This document shows, one piece after another, positions 15,720 to 60,419 of a stretch of 64,000 nucleotides of DNA (position 1 is its first letter; every line of letters begins with the position of its first letter). The stretch is from contig OX597815.1 in NCBI GenBank assembly GCA_951406725.2, positions 6,076,001-6,140,000 of the forward strand, given 5' to 3'. This DNA comes from Octopus vulgaris (lineage: Eukaryota). The notes below the pieces were generated by a model. The model ran no database searches. It saw only the letters and a list, made by a program, of their open reading frames with translations, and was not told where the DNA came from. The position numbers and the translations under genes were made by a program.

Positions 15720-17548
15720 TTAGCCATACAGGGCTGCACACAGACGGGACAAATTACAAGGTAGAGCTTTTCTTTTTGGGGACAAAAAAGGGGGTTTGGT
15801 TTTCGATCAAAAGGGATCGTAAAAAGAAAGAAAGAGGAAAGCAAAAAAAGGGAGGATAAGAATAAAAGGAAAAAGAAAAAAAAATCGATCAATAGGGATC
15901 GTTATCACAGAAATGTCAATATAAAGTGTAAAGGGGAGGACAGGTGAGGTTTACCTGTGGAAAGAAAAACCTATGGAAAAGACCACGGTAACCTCGGTCA
16001 ATAATGTCACATGTTACCACATTTATTTGCAAGTAAATAACTCTGTTTTAATTTTTTCCGGGTTCATAGGATCATGCCCAAGGTGGCTTCGTCATTCATA
16101 TGTGCCATCCTTGCTACATTCACCCATCTTTTTTTTAAACATTCGCTAGACAAAACTTGCCTCTTAACTCTCACTTTCCTTTTTCAAGTGATACTTGAAG
16201 AAGTTGATGAGAGATTGACCAGAGAGGAAAGTGCTTGTCTCTAATCCTTTCAGACGCGTCCACCAGATACATTCTTTCGCCATAGCCACAAGGATGATGA
16301 AAATAGCTCTTCCTTCCCGTTTGAAGGAAGGAGGCGTGACGATATTGACGATAGACTCGCTGATAAACCGACACGTCCCACACGTGACAGCAGTCGTTCG
16401 ACATAAGCCCACAGGTGGGAAATTGTTGGACACTGCACGAGTGCGTGCAGAACGGTTTCGTCGCTCTAACCGCATCTGGGGCAGGTCGGCCCCGTGTTTC
16501 TCGAGCCGTGTCTGTAGAGCTTATCCCGAACGGGTAGCGCTTCACGGTAGCACTGCCAGGCCAGGAATCTCTGGAAGTTGTCCATAGGTCCCGGCCCGAA
16601 AGTCGTCTTGAACAGGCAGGTCAGGTATTCCTCGTCGACGCCCAGGTTCGCCCCGGGCTCGACGTCGTACCTCCCCTCCACTAATCCCCTATAGAATGCT
16701 TTGGTTGCGTTGAAGTCACTCAAGGTCGACCCGGGACGGCAGAGTTGCTTGAGAGCAACGCGACACTCGCGGTGCCATTCGCCCTTCCTCGGCCTCTTTT
16801 TGATCCACGACTGCAGTTCGGTCATGGAGACGAGTTGCGGGAAAGCGTGCCTCACAAACGGCGACCACACCTGTTCACCGTCGTCTACGTAGAGCCAGAG
16901 ATGTCGCAGTCTCAGCACGTGTCTGCGCATCATCAACCACGGCATGCCCAGCCCTCCTTTTAGCGGGTGTTGACAGCAAATGGATCGCCTGACCATCGGG
17001 ACGCATCCTTTCCACAAGAAGCGAAAGAAAATGTGTTCTAGTTTGATGATGGTAAGGTCGGGACAAGGCACGACGGTCAGGCGGTAGTAGATGAAGGACG
17101 CGATGTACGAGTTTGCCACCTCCGCCCGACCTTTTAGGGACAGTTTCCTCTCGGCCCACTGCCGGGCGAGAGTGACCGCCCTACTCGTTATCTCGTTCCA
17201 GTTTTTCTCCATTTGGAGGTCCGGACCAAACCAGACCCCGAGCAACTCGACCGGACCGTCGGTCCAGCGTCTCACGGCGGAGGCGCTGGTGTACGGCATG
17301 GGCTTGCTTCTCCAGGTGCCAAGTCGCAAGCCCACTGACTTTTCCCGGTTAATTTTTGCTCCTGTCACCGCTTCGTAGTCTTTCAGTGTCTCGCCGACCA
17401 GGTCGATGTGTTCGTGGCTAGACACTATGACGGTGACGTCGTCCGCGTATGCAGACACGCTCGTCCCGCATCCCAATTCTCGCGGGATGCCTCTCAGAGT
17501 TGCCAGCTTCCGCAATAATGGTTCGAGAGTCAATACGTAGAGAAGCGA
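15720..17548 (-). mobile_element. 5'-truncated L1/Tx1-clade non-LTR retrotransposon inserted in (GATA)n
   Basis: RT motif VSAYADD, thumb LLGVWF, GGLG motif, C-terminal CPRC..ETVLH..C zinc knuckle; GATA repeats abut both ends. Confidence 0.9.
16060..17548 (-). pseudogene. Tx1-like ORF2 remnant (RT C-terminal half plus zinc knuckle); stop at 16466-16468 and later frameshifts
   Basis: ORF 16466..17533 (355 aa) continues in ORFs 16250..16438 and 16164..16475; downstream end approximate. Confidence 0.85.
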
Positions 17549-18149
17549 GATAGATAGATAGATAGGTTGGGGTGGGTTGCAGCTGCCTACCTCGGTTGGT
17601 ATGGCATCGAGGTAGATACAGCCACCCTCGTTAACGGGGACAAAACCCGGATATAAAACACTGGATGATGATGATGATGATATACATATATATACAAAGA
17701 AACATACATCAATATGCTTGCATGTTTGTGCTGTTGCTGTACTTTGGGAGGGTCATTTTGCTAATAAAAGCACGCGCCTTTTTGTTTTCTTATAATTAAT
17801 CATCTACTTAACTAATTAACTAATCTGTTTCTCGACTAATCGCTTGATTAATCCATCAATTAGTTTGATAGAGTCCTTTGGTCGCCCTCTGTGACATCAT
17901 CTATGACGCATCCTCGTCCATTCCAGGTACAACGTCTGTTTTATTACACGATTTCACACAGGGAGACTTTTGCACGGCCATTGCTGTCGATAAATGAGTC
18001 ACCGTTGATTCGATTCGTCTCAGAATCCTTACAAATCGGAGTTACAGTTTATTGTTAAACATTTCCACTGAATGCAACTTCCGTTGTTTAACGTACTTAA
18101 TGGCACAAAAGATGCACCGCAATTTCAGCAGCGAATAGTCAGGTAAAGA

Positions 18150-24819: not shown

Positions 24820-25950
24820 TTACACAACCTTACACCGTCTAGCACGATCTAACCTCACATGCTTTAGTACGGCCTAACACGGCCAAGCGGAGCCTAATAC
24901 AGCTTCACGCGGTCTAACACGATTTAACGGCATCACACGACCTCATACGTTCTAACACGGCCTTATACAGCCTAAGACAGCCTCCTGCAGTCTGATATAA
25001 CTTAACACAGTTTAACACGGCCTATCACAGCCTCACATGCTCTAACATGGCCTATCACAGCCTCACATGCTCTAACATGGCCTATCACAGCCTCACATGC
25101 TCTAACAGCATCTCGAAAGAGTCCGGAAGCTGGCTACCCGCATGGTTCTTGGTCTCAAGCATTTGTCTTATGAAGAAAGGCTGAAGACGCTCGACTTTTA
25201 TTCTCTAGAAAAACGACGTCGCCGTGGTGGTCTCATTCTTGCTCACAACATCATAAGCGGAAAGTGTAACCTCTCGAAAGAGCTGTTCTTCACTCCTGCT
25301 CCAGAGCGTCGGCTTCGGGGTCACTCCGAAAAGCTCTATCTGCGACGATTTCATCTCAATCGAAGGAGAGGGGCTTTCTCCGTCCGGGTTGCGGATCCGT
25401 GGAATAAGCTGCCGGACGAGATAGTGAAGATGCCGACGACCGCTCGGTTCAAAGTCTCCCTTGACCACAAGTGGCCTGAACTCTTTACATTAACACTACC
25501 CTATACATAACTCCATGTCCCCCTACATGGCCTTGCTTTTTGCTTTTTGAGCCAAAAAATTAACTAACTAACATAACCTAATATATCTTCACACGGTCTA
25601 ACATTGCCTCATGAGGTCTAATATGGCGTAATACAACTTCAAACGGCCCATATGCTTTACACGGTCTAACACAACCTCACACGGTCTAACACAACCTCAC
25701 TCGGTCTAACATAGCCTTACGAGGTCTAATGTAGCCTAATAAAACTTCAGATAGTCTAACAGCTTTACGCGGTGAAACACAGTCTCACGCGGTCTAACAT
25801 GGCCTAATAAGACCACACACGGTCTATAGGCTTTACATGGTCTAACACAGCCTCACCCGGTCTAACATAACCTGATACAGTCAAACAGTGCTTCACTCGG
25901 TCTAACACAGCCTCACACTAACATTTTCCCACAAGATTTAACACAACCTG
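24820..25950. repeat. Degenerate ~20/30-bp minisatellite (CACGGTCTAACACAGCCTCA-like), split by a CR1 insertion
   Basis: Recurrent GGTCTAACA; three tandem copies of CCTATCACAGCCTCACATGCTCTAAC at 25021-25106. Confidence 0.8.
25107..25572 (+). mobile_element. CR1-clade LINE 3' end (ORF2 C-terminus, 3' UTR, (TAAC)n tail)
   Basis: LSYEERLKTLDFYSLEKRRRRGGLI...LRGHSEKL...FSVRVADPWNKLP is the typical CR1 C-terminus; stop at 25510. Confidence 0.9.
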
Positions 25951-29073: not shown

Positions 29074-29257
29074 TACCAATTAAGGACTGAACACGAAAAG
29101 TGGACAGTCAACATGCTAGATATAGACGTCAAATCGCCATTCTCCACAAAGATTATGTTCTCAAATAAAATAAAATTCAGCACAAAATTTTTATATATAT
29201 ATATATATATATGTGGGTACAGGACATAAAAAATAACGTGAACAAAATGAGAAAGTT

Positions 29258-29420
29258 AGGGGTTGTGAATCCAACCCACTAAGGGATAATATTTATCCAA
29301 TATACTGTTGATATAATACCCAATTATTAATACACAAGTGTTTTTAATTGCAATGCAATAAACTTATTTATTGTATTAAATGGGTGAAGGTAAAGAAATA
29401 TTTTACCATTAATTTATATT
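29258..29420 (-). mobile_element. Diverged 3' terminus related to the 57211-58604 element
   Basis: Reverse complement aligns by eye with 58435-58590 (TACCTTTACCCATTTAATACAAT...ATATTGGATA..TTATCCC..GTGGGTTG..TTC..AACCCC). Confidence 0.65.
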
Positions 29421-29523
29421 GCAAATAAGAAAATGTAGGAGAACAATAGTTGGTTCGTCAACTTTAGTACATTGAAAATATTAACTCATTTATTTATTAA
29501 ACTGATAAAGCTATATATATGTA

Positions 29524-29904
29524 TCTCTTTCTATATAAACGGCAGTTTGTCTGTGCGTGTTTCTGTGTGTCTGTCAGGTTGTACCCTCACCCTGACCACG
29601 GCTTTCAACCGATTCTGATGAAACTTGACACACACATAGCCCAATGTCATAATTCAAAACTAACGCAGCGAAAATTTTGAAAAGTTCCCCCAGTTCTGAA
29701 AAAATCGATAAATTCGACATGGGGTCGAGAATCAGAAACACAAACCGCAAACTGTCTAGGGGACGCAACTCCACCTTTTTTAACTAAAAAAAAATTTACC
29801 ATCATTTTTTTCCATTTTTTTGCTATTTTTTGGCTATAACTCTCTAAAAATGCTTTATAGTTATTTCCCTTACAAACCTGAGCAACGCCGGGCGATACTG
29901 CTAG
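29524..29904 (+). mobile_element. Non-autonomous Helitron
   Basis: A|TC 5' end; subterminal hairpin CCTGAGC-AAC-GCCGGG; CTAG|T 3' end. Confidence 0.8.
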
Positions 29905-30023
29905 TGTTATTATAATTATCAGTTTAATAAATACATAAGTTAATATTTTCAATGTCTTAAAGTTGACGAACCAACTATTGTTCTCCTCCATTTTCTTATT
30001 TGCTACATATATATATATATATA

Positions 30024-41490: not shown

Positions 41491-42246
41491 TGTGGTGGAG
41501 GCGCATTTACCCCGCTTGACAGCGGGTTTAAACAAGCTTGGCTAGATGGCGCAGCAGCGGTGAGATTCTGACACGAGGCGTTGCAACTTTCTCTCTTTTC
41601 TCGTCAAGACGTCCGACCGTAAAGACATAAGTTAGTTGGCTCTCTCTCGCGACACACGTGCGGCGACTAGGAGACAGGAGGCAACGCACGGGAGAAGATC
41701 ATGGGCTCCACGCATCAAACCATTTCCATTTATCATTCACCTTGTATATATATACTAGCAGTATCGCCCGGCGTTGCTCGGGTTTGTAAGGGAAATAACT
41801 ATATAAGCATTTTTAGAGAGTTATAGCCAAAAAATAGCAAAAAAATGCATTAAAAATGGGAAAAAAAATTATGGTAATTTTTTTTTTAAATCGTTGACTC
41901 ATCGTAGAAATTTTTAGAGAGTTACTTCCCTTATATAATAGCGAAAAAAATGCATTAAAATGGAAAAAAATGATGGTAATTTTTTTTTTTAATCGTAGAC
42001 TCATCGTAGACGCGCGCTAACACCCAGAAGGGCTCGATATGAATCACGACTATAAGATACCCGGTTTTGGTTAAACTGCACCGCAAAATGTGGGAGTAGT
42101 TAGGAATCTAAATCGTAGGAGACAGACACACAACGCGACTTTTATATATAAAGATATATATACGTGTGGCTGGCATTAAAAGTATTTAAAGTTACCGCAT
42201 TGTTTTATGTATTCTTTATACCGTGTGTCTGTCAAATGATATTACA
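41491..42246. mobile_element. Possible solo LTR (TG...CA) interrupted by a Helitron
   Basis: Begins TGTGGTGG, ends TATTACA, ATTAAA near 3' end; no clear TSD. Confidence 0.3.
41755..42154 (-). mobile_element. Non-autonomous Helitron inserted in (TA)n
   Basis: Minus strand A|TCTTTATATATAAAA ... CCCGAGCAACGCCGGGCGATACTGCTAG|T. Confidence 0.85.
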
Positions 42247-50789: not shown

Positions 50790-50951
50790 TTCTTAGTGAC
50801 TACGATGAGTCTACGATTTAAAAAAAATTTACCATCATTTTTCCGCATTTTTAATGATTTTTGCTCGGGTTATATAAGGGAAGTAACTCTCTAAAATGCT
50901 TATATAGTTATTTCCCTTACAAACCCGAGCAACGCTGGGCGATACTGCTAG
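50790..50951 (+). mobile_element. Helitron 3' fragment
   Basis: Same terminal CCCGAGCAACGCTGGGCGATACTGCTAG as 29524 and 41755 elements. Confidence 0.8.
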
Positions 50952-51192
50952 TATATATATATAAATAAATGTAAGATGCAGGGATCGGTGTGGGGAAGAA
51001 AGTTAGCTTGTTAGCTCCAAGCAACTCGTAGTAAATATTAAAAAAAACAACTTTCAGGTACATTAGTGGTTTATTGAGATGGAAGGTTGTGGTTGTTTTT
51101 CGTATCGAAGTACGATAAACTGAAAAAAGTTCTTTTTACATTTCATGTTAGGCGACCAGGGTTGCCGGATGTGCAAATAAGAATACAAGAGT

Positions 51193-56971: not shown

Positions 56972-57185
56972 TAAGGCAGAGAGCTGGCAGAAACTTTAAT
57001 ACACCGGGTGAAATGCTCATCAGTATTTCGTCTGTCTTCACGTTCTGAGTTCAAATTCCATCGAGGTCAACTTTGCCTTTCATCCTTTCGGGGTCGATAA
57101 AATAAGTACCACTTGCGTACTGGGGTTGATCTAAGAATCAACTGGCCCCGTCCCCCAAAATTTCAGGCCTTGTATCTATAGTAGG
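56972..57185 (+). mobile_element. SINE family D
   Basis: TAAGGCAGAGAGCTGGCAGAA...GGGGTCGATAAAATAAGTACC. Confidence 0.85.
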
Positions 57186-57408
57186 AAACAAAAATATATA
57201 TATATATATATAATACTACAAAATTAGAGAATGGAGAAACATACTTAAATCAGTAAAACATCAACTATCCGATGATACTCAATCCATACTTTAATACACC
57301 ATTACATATGAGTAAAGGCAATATATAAAATGAAATGAGGTATACAGTAATAGTAAAAAGATAAAGAGATATAAGTAAAAAATTTCAAATATAATATGCA
57401 AATAAATC

Positions 57409-57524
57409 AAAACTGACAGCTGTTTCGGCAGTGAGGACAGTCATACCTCATTTAACCTATAAGCCATAAAGGCAGGTATAAATGAGGCATTAACAAGGAT
57501 GCCCCACGGCCTCTTCAGAGAATT
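57409..57524 (-). ncRNA. Mirror copy of the 58121-58236 hammerhead
   Basis: Reverse complement within the left arm (TGACAGCTGTTTCGGC...GCCTCTTCAG). Confidence 0.8.
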
Positions 57525-57736
57525 AAATTAAATTTGTTATAATAGTGAAAAATATTATATAATCATATACATATAAATATAAAAATATAGAAATGTAAAA
57601 TATAAAAACTTATACATCATAATGCTACACTTATATAATATAATACCGAAATAACTATATTATTTCGAAATAACTATATTATTTCGATCTTGAAAGGATG
57701 GACTTGGTGCTAACTTAACTGTATCTATTTTTATTA

Positions 57737-57785
<49 letters not shown>

Positions 57786-58120
57786 AGTAATTTTTATTAA
57801 CTTTTATAGCTTTAGAATTTTATGAACTGTACCACGGATTTAATTATTATTTTTCATCTCCATATGTGTTAGCCTTTTTTTATAAAAAAAACTATTAGCC
57901 AAATATGTATAATATCGGTACTTATTAATATTAATATATACACTGTTATATATTTTGTTTTATTTTGTTCTGTTTACCTTCCTTTTTTGTACAAATGTGT
58001 ATTATATTATATAAGTGTAGCATTATGATGTATAAGTTTTTATATTTTACATTTCTATATTTTTATATTTATATGTATATGATTATATAATATTTTTCAC
58101 TATTATAACAAATTTAATTT

Positions 58121-58236
58121 AATTCTCTGAAGAGGCCGTGGGGCATCCTTGTTAATGCCTCATTTATACCTGCCTTTATGGCTTATAGGTTAAATGAGGT
58201 ATGACTGTCCTCACTGCCGAAACAGCTGTCAGTTTT
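58121..58236 (+). ncRNA. Type I hammerhead ribozyme with long branched stem II
   Basis: CUGAAGA (58127-58133), GGC...GCC, GAAAC-AGCU-GUC (site after 58230); palindromic stem III ACAGCUGU; short, interrupted stem I. Confidence 0.8.
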
Positions 58237-58602
58237 GATTTATTTGCATATTATATTTGAAATTTTTTACTTATATCTCTTTATCTTTTTACTATTACTG
58301 TATACCTCATTTCATTTTATATATTGCCTTTACTCATATGTAATGGTGTATTAAAGTATGGATTGAGTATCATCGGATAGTTGATGTTTTACTGATTTAA
58401 GTATGTTTCTCCATTCTCTAATTTTGTAGTATTAATTTACGGTAATATTATTACCTTTACCCATTTAATACAATAGATGAACTGATTGTTTGACAATTTT
58501 TAACATCTATGTATTAATTTTGTTGGGTACCTATCTAGCAGTATATTGGATATATATTATCCCATGGTGGGTTGAATTTTCAACCCCTATCTCATTTTAT
58601 AA

Positions 58603-58661
<59 letters not shown>

Positions 58662-58680
58662 GCATATATACATATATATA

Positions 58681-58827
58681 TCATCATCATCATCGTTTAA
58701 CGTCCGCTTTCCATGTTGGCATGGGTTGGACGGTTCAACTGGGGTCTGGGAAGCCAGAAGGCTGCACCAGGCCCAGTCTGATCTGGCAGTGTTTCTACAG
58801 ATGGATGCCCTTCCTAACACCAACCAC
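58681..58827 (-). mobile_element. SINE/LINE 3' tail fragment (family E) with (GAT)n tail
   Basis: Minus GTTGGTGTTAGGAAGGGCATCCATCTGTAGAAAC; homologous to ~61615-61750. Confidence 0.7.
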
Positions 58828-59929: not shown

Positions 59930-60104
59930 TATTAAAATTATAACTTAGAGTATCTACGAGATACCGCCATGCTGAAAATAGTAGCCAAAATCTGACTCTA
60001 AAACCTTGTGCTGTATGAACATTTAATGTGGTTTTAGAGTCAGATTTTGGCTGCTATATTCAGCATGGCAGTATCTCGTAGATACCCTAAGTTATGATTT
60101 TAAT
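59930..60104. repeat. Fold-back element (~75-bp arms) abutting (TA)n
   Basis: TAACTTAGAGTATCTACGAGATAC...CTCTAAAACC / GGTTTTAGAG...GTATCTCGTAGATACCCTAAGTTA. Confidence 0.85.
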
Positions 60105-60419
60105 ATATATATATATATACAGCATATATTTTTATGAGCTAATAGTTTCATGTGACAAAAATGGCTCAGACAGCATTTCATAACATGTCTGGTACCTTTT
60201 TGCAATCCTCGGGCTCTGCCCACATAGCATAATCAGTTAAAACATATACATATGTATATATATATAGCTCATTATGCTATGTATATATATATATTATTAT
60301 TACATATTTGGGATACTTTTTACATTGCATTAGGAAAGTGTAATATAGTTCTGATAACATAGAATACTTGTTATTCCCTAAGATTTAAAAAAATATATAT
60401 ATATATACATATATATATA

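Follow-up and report, generated by a model that had tools for sequence, protein, structure and literature searches.

The locus described here occupies positions 57211-58604 of a 64,000-nt window, the whole stretch of Octopus vulgaris DNA that was analysed. The window is AT-rich, microsatellite-rich DNA of animal type with many SINE-like repeats, and the repeats adjoining the locus resemble what we take to be octopus SINE families. Elsewhere in the window, a 428-aa frame at 16466-17752 (minus strand) is the C-terminal region of a non-LTR retrotransposon RT with a YADD motif and is unrelated to the insertion. A second LINE-like fragment is located at 25106-25510 (minus strand), and a MITE-like 76-nt inverted repeat, 93% complementary with a 24-nt spacer, at 59930-60105.

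Self-comparison gives two inverted-repeat arms, 57211-57646 and 57999-58434, each 436 nt long, 100% complementary without a mismatch, and separated by 352 nt. Only the right arm is extended, by 170 nt, and (TA)n lies on both sides of the unit. A preliminary description, made from the letters alone, had reported equal-length arms free of mismatches, a one-sided 3' extension and (TA)n on both flanks, and these observations bear it out. The 352-nt spacer that it reported has the correct length; it is not unrelated DNA, since 57679-57998 is family sequence and only 57647-57678 is filler. Because 57679-57998 is collinear with the right arm, the unit resolves into a direct copy, an inverted copy of 57999-58434, and 32 nt of filler. 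The two copies of one 3' region stand head to head with their 3' ends outward, one ending at 58434 and the other 170 nt beyond, at 58604. The features of this locus and of a second insertion in the window are as follows.

57195..57210, no strand: left target tract, (TA)8, read from the letters; continues into the arm's own first TA (possible microhomology)
57211..57646, minus: inverted 5'-truncated copy of the element, 436 nt, 0 mismatches against the right arm
57407..57526, minus: mirror hammerhead, C3 at 57518 and predicted cut after 57415; coordinates by symmetry
57647..57678, no strand: junction filler, two overlapping short fold-back (palindromic) units, from letters and fold; loose contig ends at 57679
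57679..58604, plus: direct copy, truncated at its 5' end, 926 nt; represents the pLTR-like 3' region of a multi-copy family, AT-rich and non-coding
58119..58238, plus: motif of a type I hammerhead with its core at 58127-58133 and 58219-58230; stem III of 2 bp, palindromic; stem I weak; cleavage predicted after 58230
58134..58218, plus: stem II rod, 85 nt; 33 bp in the MFE fold, with three G-U wobbles
58435..58604, plus: one-sided tail, 170 nt; homologous tail at 29.2-29.4 kb, 75% identical
58569..58586, plus: terminal hairpin, 6-bp stem and 6-nt loop, candidate RT initiation or recognition signal; stem kept in the 29-kb copy
58605..58656, no strand: right target tract, (TA)26, read from the letters
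29213..29508, minus: direct 3' end of a second, older insertion; tail of about 200 nt, then (TA)n; too short to reach the hammerhead region
29916..30012, plus: inverted arm of the second insertion, 97 nt, 92% identical; ends in (TA)n about 5 nt from the site homologous to 58434

The 3' end of the inverted copy points to the left flank and coincides with internal end site 1; this site corresponds to 58434, where the arm's last bases merge with TA. A palindrome is present at the inverted junction (57647-57686). No credible ORF lies inside the 926-nt direct copy. The tail was considered as the start of an ORF; its sole open frame has no ATG and, by eye, is not conserved in the 29-kb copy. A direct tandem of the kind that forms a pLTR is absent at both loci in the window, as expected for short truncated copies, and no target-site duplication is readable within the (TA)n.

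Two insertions with a common layout

When the element was compared with the window by BLAST, a further 3' end, 75% identical, came up on the minus strand at 29244-29451. It belongs to a second unit, whose arms (29412-29508 and 29916-30012) are 97 nt long, 92% identical, and stop short of the ribozyme region. Both of the two loci in the window are thus inserted in (TA)n, and both carry a one-sided tail, of 170 and about 200 nt. They have the outer end and the target in common and differ in their inner ends (arms of 436 versus 97 nt). That a subfamily diverged by 25% repeats this layout is the strongest reason to attribute it to the insertion mechanism. Both tails close with an identical 6-bp hairpin stem bearing differing 6-nt loops, and a 20-mer beside the hairpin occurs twice in the window, once per locus, against 0.00 expected. 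Between the arms of the second locus lie about 400 bp of another repeat (29509-29915), parts of which recur at 41754-41888 and 50820-50952; this repeat is presumably Helitron- or HINE-like.

The inverted repeat might be an assembly or library artefact, either a fold-back chimera or a collapsed repeat; the preliminary description had raised the case of an assembly artefact. The arms are 100% identical even where the copy departs from most family contigs (58305, 58360, 58366 and 58392), and the inverted structures of Penelope-like elements (PLEs) are known to trouble assemblies (PMC8557442, which, like the other papers cited, is represented here by part of its text). However, an artefact would not reproduce the layout at an older locus whose 92%-identical arms end at a homologous site, and the left arm halts at (TA)n, next to which comes a SINE-like repeat of the ordinary kind and not a mirror image of the right flank. 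We give this explanation only the slightest of chances.

The continuity of the spacer with the family, taken with the like layout at the second locus, argues both against an artefact and against a unit purpose-built to carry two ribozymes. The preliminary description had favoured such a unit, with the two-ribozyme inverted repeat itself as the mobile entity. This is not supported, given the second locus, which has the layout with 97-bp arms short of the ribozyme, and given that inversion is a standard by-product of PLE insertion. It is also very improbable that the 436-bp arms are the terminal inverted repeats of a non-autonomous DNA transposon or of a fold-back element inserted at TA, in which the hammerhead would be a passenger or a chance occurrence. 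Perfect arms and TA at both ends are what such an element would have. However, only the right arm goes on into the 170-nt tail of the family, the spacer is itself collinear with the family, and the arms of the two loci, common in their outer ends, differ in length and in their inner ends.

The hammerhead motif and its stem II

The motif has the CUGANGA and GAAA elements, the NUH core and the three helices that characterize type I hammerheads. On the plus strand, C3 to A9 occupy 58127-58133, G10.1 is at 58134, C11.1 at 58218, G12 to A14 at 58219-58221, A15.1 at 58222 and C15.2 at 58223; the loop AGCU and the triplet GUC (58228-58230) follow. A canonical core had been claimed for each arm, and it is indeed complete on the plus strand (58127-58230) and mirrored on the minus strand. 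Stem III consists of 2 bp and a palindromic loop, in agreement with the palindromic stem III described earlier, and the 8-nt palindrome has a self-duplex energy of -11.1 kcal/mol. Stem I is weak, with 2 bp, a 2x2 U-U loop, and then 4 bp.

The insert that forms stem II is predicted to fold at -38 kcal/mol (z -5.52), and none of 200 shuffles was equally stable; its antisense strand gives -27.7. The closing pair has a probability of 0.91-0.99 across four sequence contexts. The structured stem II of about 85 nt noticed in the preliminary description is accordingly reproduced as a 33-bp rod, and both of the pairings named there occur in the fold. With such a rod, the short loop II that normally docks on loop I would be missing. 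On account of its length alone, the rod was also considered as a microRNA-like precursor. The active monomer fold makes up about 1e-4 of the ensemble, as estimated from nearest-neighbour energies without tertiary terms, and the MFE fold sequesters the core CUG. A further pairing, of 58192-58202 with 58302-58312, was rejected, having a probability of 0.0 in three folding contexts.

A loose hammerhead descriptor matched just 2 of 2000 dinucleotide shuffles of the 926-nt element, which also tells against the hammerhead being a chance passenger of a DNA transposon. Across the window the same descriptor has five matches, the two arms and three others with inserts at -9 to -14 kcal/mol. The Rfam check proposed earlier came out negative: no hammerhead was found at the gathering score in the whole window or at E values up to 10 in 57000-58800, and apart from noise from AT repeats these searches gave nothing, neither a group I intron nor any other family that is credible. 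The Rfam models probably miss the motif because of the 85-nt insert. The insert was also considered as a spliceosomal or group I intron and rejected as such, as it has no Rfam match and no joint, and GT/AG pairs chosen by eye would restore no short stem. Positions 58197-58204, in the 3' strand of stem II, form a good site resembling a 5' splice donor; its GT is altered in a subfamily (58199, 58200), and no joint is listed there.

The preliminary description suggested that the enlarged stem II is a recognition domain for a partner RT. This is disfavoured, since the ends at the two loci correspond to sites that lie downstream of the ribozyme by about 200 and 370 nt, and since, for the one PLE assayed in vitro, hammerhead mutants and a 5' truncation into stem II were still inserted, according to the available text of PMC11167929. 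The tail, with the conserved hairpin that terminates it, would be a better candidate for recognition by the RT than stem II.

Copies of the family in sequencing runs

Between 0.65 and 0.77 of the words of 57647-58604 are present in 20 of the 24 runs listed (seven studies, one organism). Contigs of four runs were aligned to 57560-58604; X2 and X13 are DNA runs, and X1 and X3 were guessed to be RNA. The two DNA runs, from different studies, contain 1573 and 589 contigs of the element. Their identities to the locus span from below 90% to above 99%, so that this is a multi-copy family with subfamilies, which agrees with the mobility postulated for it earlier. The spacer is covered by contigs, and its boundary with the right arm is bridged by X13 record 10 (57962-58028) and X3 record 27 (57885-58023). 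Loose contig ends at 57679 in X2 and X1 mark where the family diverges from the locus upstream, and in one contig it continues for at least 186 nt. For the filler, 57647-57678, the four runs gave no exact contig cover at 57660/57662 and no joint; contigs drop rare variants, and the records were filtered, so this weighs neither way. Past 58434 the summed contig depth drops in both DNA runs, a depth that is not equal to copy number. Loose contig ends show, by eye, more variants of the terminal hairpin loop, several of them AC-rich, and the closing pair of the hairpin is changed from G-C to A-U in two runs (1 and 3 contigs, by eye).

In one frame of the 30 letters available upstream of 57679, a short W-x-x-F-L stretch is followed by a stop that coincides with the truncation point, and another in-frame stop lies slightly further upstream. 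We assume the stretch to be reminiscent of the ends of Penelope/Poseidon ORFs.

Core conservation across copies had been named as a test of the ribozyme. Among the 40 of 73 variant rows that are listed, none from the DNA runs alters the core, which counts for little in a young family. The DNA-run variants listed for stem II comprise five substitutions and one insertion. Three of the six (58178, 58184, and an A inserted after 58176) fall in a loop or bulge, and two turn a G-U into a G-C pair: 58200 T>C and 58208 T>C, the latter at a summed depth of 250091/663834 in X2 and 18638/31298 in X13. The remaining one, 58199 G>A, disrupts a pair, and none of the rows listed compensates for it; nor do the DNA-run variants listed include any two-sided change in stem II. 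This pattern is mildly consistent with a structure that is kept, yet it is not covariation.

A different signal appears in the presumed RNA runs. Changes of A>G or T>C account for 27/42 and 27/44 of the changed places there, versus 10/27 and 8/25 in the DNA runs (Fisher p 0.013-0.055, on places that are not independent). Ten of the 40 rows listed are missing from both DNA runs, and eight of these ten are A>G. Among them are two core positions, A14 (58221) and A15.1 (58222), with four X1 contigs apiece; the latter is also changed in one low-depth X3 contig. Several low-depth contigs have 11-19 differences per 120-150 nt, across 57927-58430. The clusters are likely the product of ADAR hyper-editing of long duplexes, the RNA status of the runs being guessed, the DNA unmatched, and the depths low. 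Editing of this kind is common in the repeats of metazoans, and its level in octopus is high (PMC5625713, in part). Since the clusters reach far past stem II, the duplex of the arms, with an energy of -711 kcal/mol, is favoured over the rod as the substrate.

A bolder explanation of the same changes holds that the hammerhead is active and that ADAR is brought in by its rod; editing of the adjacent catalytic A14 and A15.1 would then turn off the cleavage of the retroelement RNA. An active class of hammerheads would then have been overlooked by standard searches because stem II is a 33-bp rod. We regard this as quite unlikely; if true, PLE families now deemed to be without hammerheads may conceal long-stem ribozymes.

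A probable Penelope-like insertion and its relatives

The structural features of published PLE insertions are an inverted 5'-truncated copy, a one-sided tail of 30-40 bp and a (TA)n bias (PMC8557442, in part). The microsatellite (TA)n bias is that of Neptune, Hydra and Naiad PLEs. Both loci in the window have the inverted copy, the one-sided tail and the (TA)n target, the direct tandem being the exception. Palindromes at inverted PLE junctions are described in the available part of PMC3846280. Penelope-13_HM, of the Hydra clade, has an inverted 5'-truncated copy at its 5' end, a (TA)n target and hammerheads on both strands (PMC8557442, in part), as does the octopus locus, which also resembles Pen2a_Av (excerpts of PMC3846280), among 5'-truncated EN+ PLE insertions with an inverted pLTR, in its junction palindrome. 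Unlike those EN+ PLE insertions, the loci described here have a tail of 170-200 nt versus 30-40 bp, the stem II of the present locus is 85 nt, and no ORF is linked to it. Hammerhead pairs on opposite strands, 100-700 bp apart, have been reported in Schistosoma (PMC4209133, in part).

The motif is comparable to the D. virilis Penelope hammerhead in being type I with a conserved core, a G10.1-C11.1 pair, a 2-bp helix I, a bulged and enlarged helix II and a small palindromic helix III; unlike in the variants of that paper, whose helix II has 6-8 bp, stem II is an irregular rod of 33 bp (PMC4209133, as far as available). Among the entries listed in the accessible part of PMC8557442, the longest stem II is about 45-55 nt (PLE-X1_sMoe and PLE-X1_sTam of spike moss, marked as non-canonical). 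Cases of half-cores 35-50 nt apart are noted for Naiads, and the core-only search in that study used a spacer of 7-17 nt. In its supplement, two Naiad 3' ends, in the entries just before Naiad_Lpol and Naiad_Hcon, have core halves that close a stem II region of about 40-50 nt, so a moderately long stem II may be common in Naiads. By eye, the 3' ends of Naiad_Obim, Naiad_Ovul and several other Naiads there contain hammerhead parts in permuted order, with the cleavage triplet and a stem I strand first, then the GAAA half, then the CUGAUGA half, such that stems I and III can pair. These motifs resemble the type-SGC non-circular permutation (PMC10085705, in part) and may explain some of the 'HHR_half_core' labels. 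Naiad_Obim, Naiad_Ovul, Naiad_Omin and Hydra-1_Obim had no 3' sequence or hammerhead in common with the element in a string search and by eye of the same supplement, where line breaks may hide matches. The literature searched, thin for subscription papers, contained no description of the family, nor of a stem II of 85 nt; Repbase or Dfam may already have an entry for the family.

A long-stem hammerhead of this kind was also sought outside the octopus. A metagenome scan for core halves 60-90 nt apart gave 34 loci, 0/34 with a closed long stem II; no metagenome contig matched the element in BLASTN, and the viral-contig scans gave 0 matches. The core-half matches were rejected as long-stem hammerheads: in eight contigs the pattern spans two short tandem units, and the rest look like chance. 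Those eight contigs (L004, L013, L015, L016, L021, L022, L025 and L034) contain tandem short type I hammerheads about 80-100 nt apart with the element's stem III sequence, and they are retrozyme-like and probably host DNA.

The comparison with retrozymes bears on a rival explanation for the whole family, that it is a non-autonomous, non-coding ribozyme retroelement of about 1 kb, retrozyme- or SINE-like, moved in trans by a PLE enzyme. This is what the view in the preliminary description becomes once the inverted pair is no longer taken as the unit. The element resembles animal non-LTR retrozymes (PMC7229834; bioRxiv 10.64898/2026.07.22.740005; both in part) in being non-coding and in having a type I hammerhead, a 2-bp stem III and a palindromic tetraloop. 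Its 926 nt without an ORF would fit, as would the argument in the available text of the preprint that animal retrozymes, with a consensus of up to 972 bp, derive from PLE pLTRs, and the canonical tandem units with identical stem III sequence in the eight contigs, which come from one metagenome assembly. Retrozymes, however, consist of short units repeated head to tail, in which stems I and II are canonical, and such tandem units define the non-LTR kind, whereas the present copies are head to head and neither locus is a head-to-tail tandem. Among contigs, no joint that would suggest a circle is listed. Furthermore, one contig carries family sequence for at least another 186 nt upstream of 57679, and any autonomous PLE truncated at its 5' end leaves behind just such a 3' region. 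We consider this explanation rather unlikely, if less so than the other alternatives.

The best explanation, with a probability of roughly 0.7, is that 57211-58604 is one recent 5'-truncated PLE insertion in (TA)n, whose predicted hammerhead would cut only as a dimer or with the assistance of protein. As no RT/GIY-YIG ORF was found or linked, membership in the PLEs is assigned from architecture. The mismatch-free arms, the (TA)n flanks and the match to published PLE hallmarks sustain the earlier view of a young, (TA)n-targeting, PLE-like insertion. The proposed course of insertion starts with nicks in the two strands of the (TA)n tract, made by the RT/GIY-YIG protein of a PLE. cDNA would be primed at two preferred sites of the RNA, one at about 58604, just past the terminal hairpin, and the other at 58434; both cDNAs would abort early and then be joined through fold-back synthesis. 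As the inversion would arise by PLE insertion, the two opposed ribozymes would be its by-product.

PAc, a Poseidon element of Anolis (PMC11167929, in part), offers a parallel. It has two internal RT start sites that define the tail, extension of both target strands, an AT-rich target, and RT initiation in a stem-loop near the 3' end, for which the terminal hairpin is the candidate counterpart at the octopus locus. Unlike in PAc, where the ORF begins in stem II and the tail is coding, the tail here is without a conserved frame, and the end sites are 170 nt apart. The PAc hammerhead is protein-assisted, and its cleavage is unnecessary for insertion, according to the same text. In the octopus family, the 8-nt palindromic stem III could form between one copy and another of a tandem transcript, with stem II held closed by the 85-nt rod. 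It may be in copies elsewhere, tandem or full-length, that the ribozyme has its use, either dimerized or assisted by protein.

The arms face outward, so that a transcript entering from either flank makes the antisense arm before the ribozyme. It had been noted earlier that a transcript of either strand would carry one ribozyme plus its antisense, and this follows from the opposed arms. Unless transcription starts inside the unit, the ribozyme of a read-through transcript would likely be trapped in the 436-bp duplex and hyper-edited rather than cleaving.

Two opposed ribozymes in a perfect inverted repeat within (TA)n are thus a known footprint of PLE insertion, and no new system is needed to account for them. 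The 33-bp stem II, the tail of 170-200 nt with a conserved hairpin, and the A>G clusters that include A14 and A15.1 look new. If confirmed, a natural hammerhead with an 85-nt stem II widens the descriptor space for assigning ribozymes to PLEs. The internal end site and hairpin common to loci 25% apart would amount to a testable map of RT start sites for an invertebrate PLE with an unusually long tail. If confirmed as well, inverted PLE insertions would supply long dsRNA steadily, and the editing-like changes in the core would tie host RNA editing to the control of the element.
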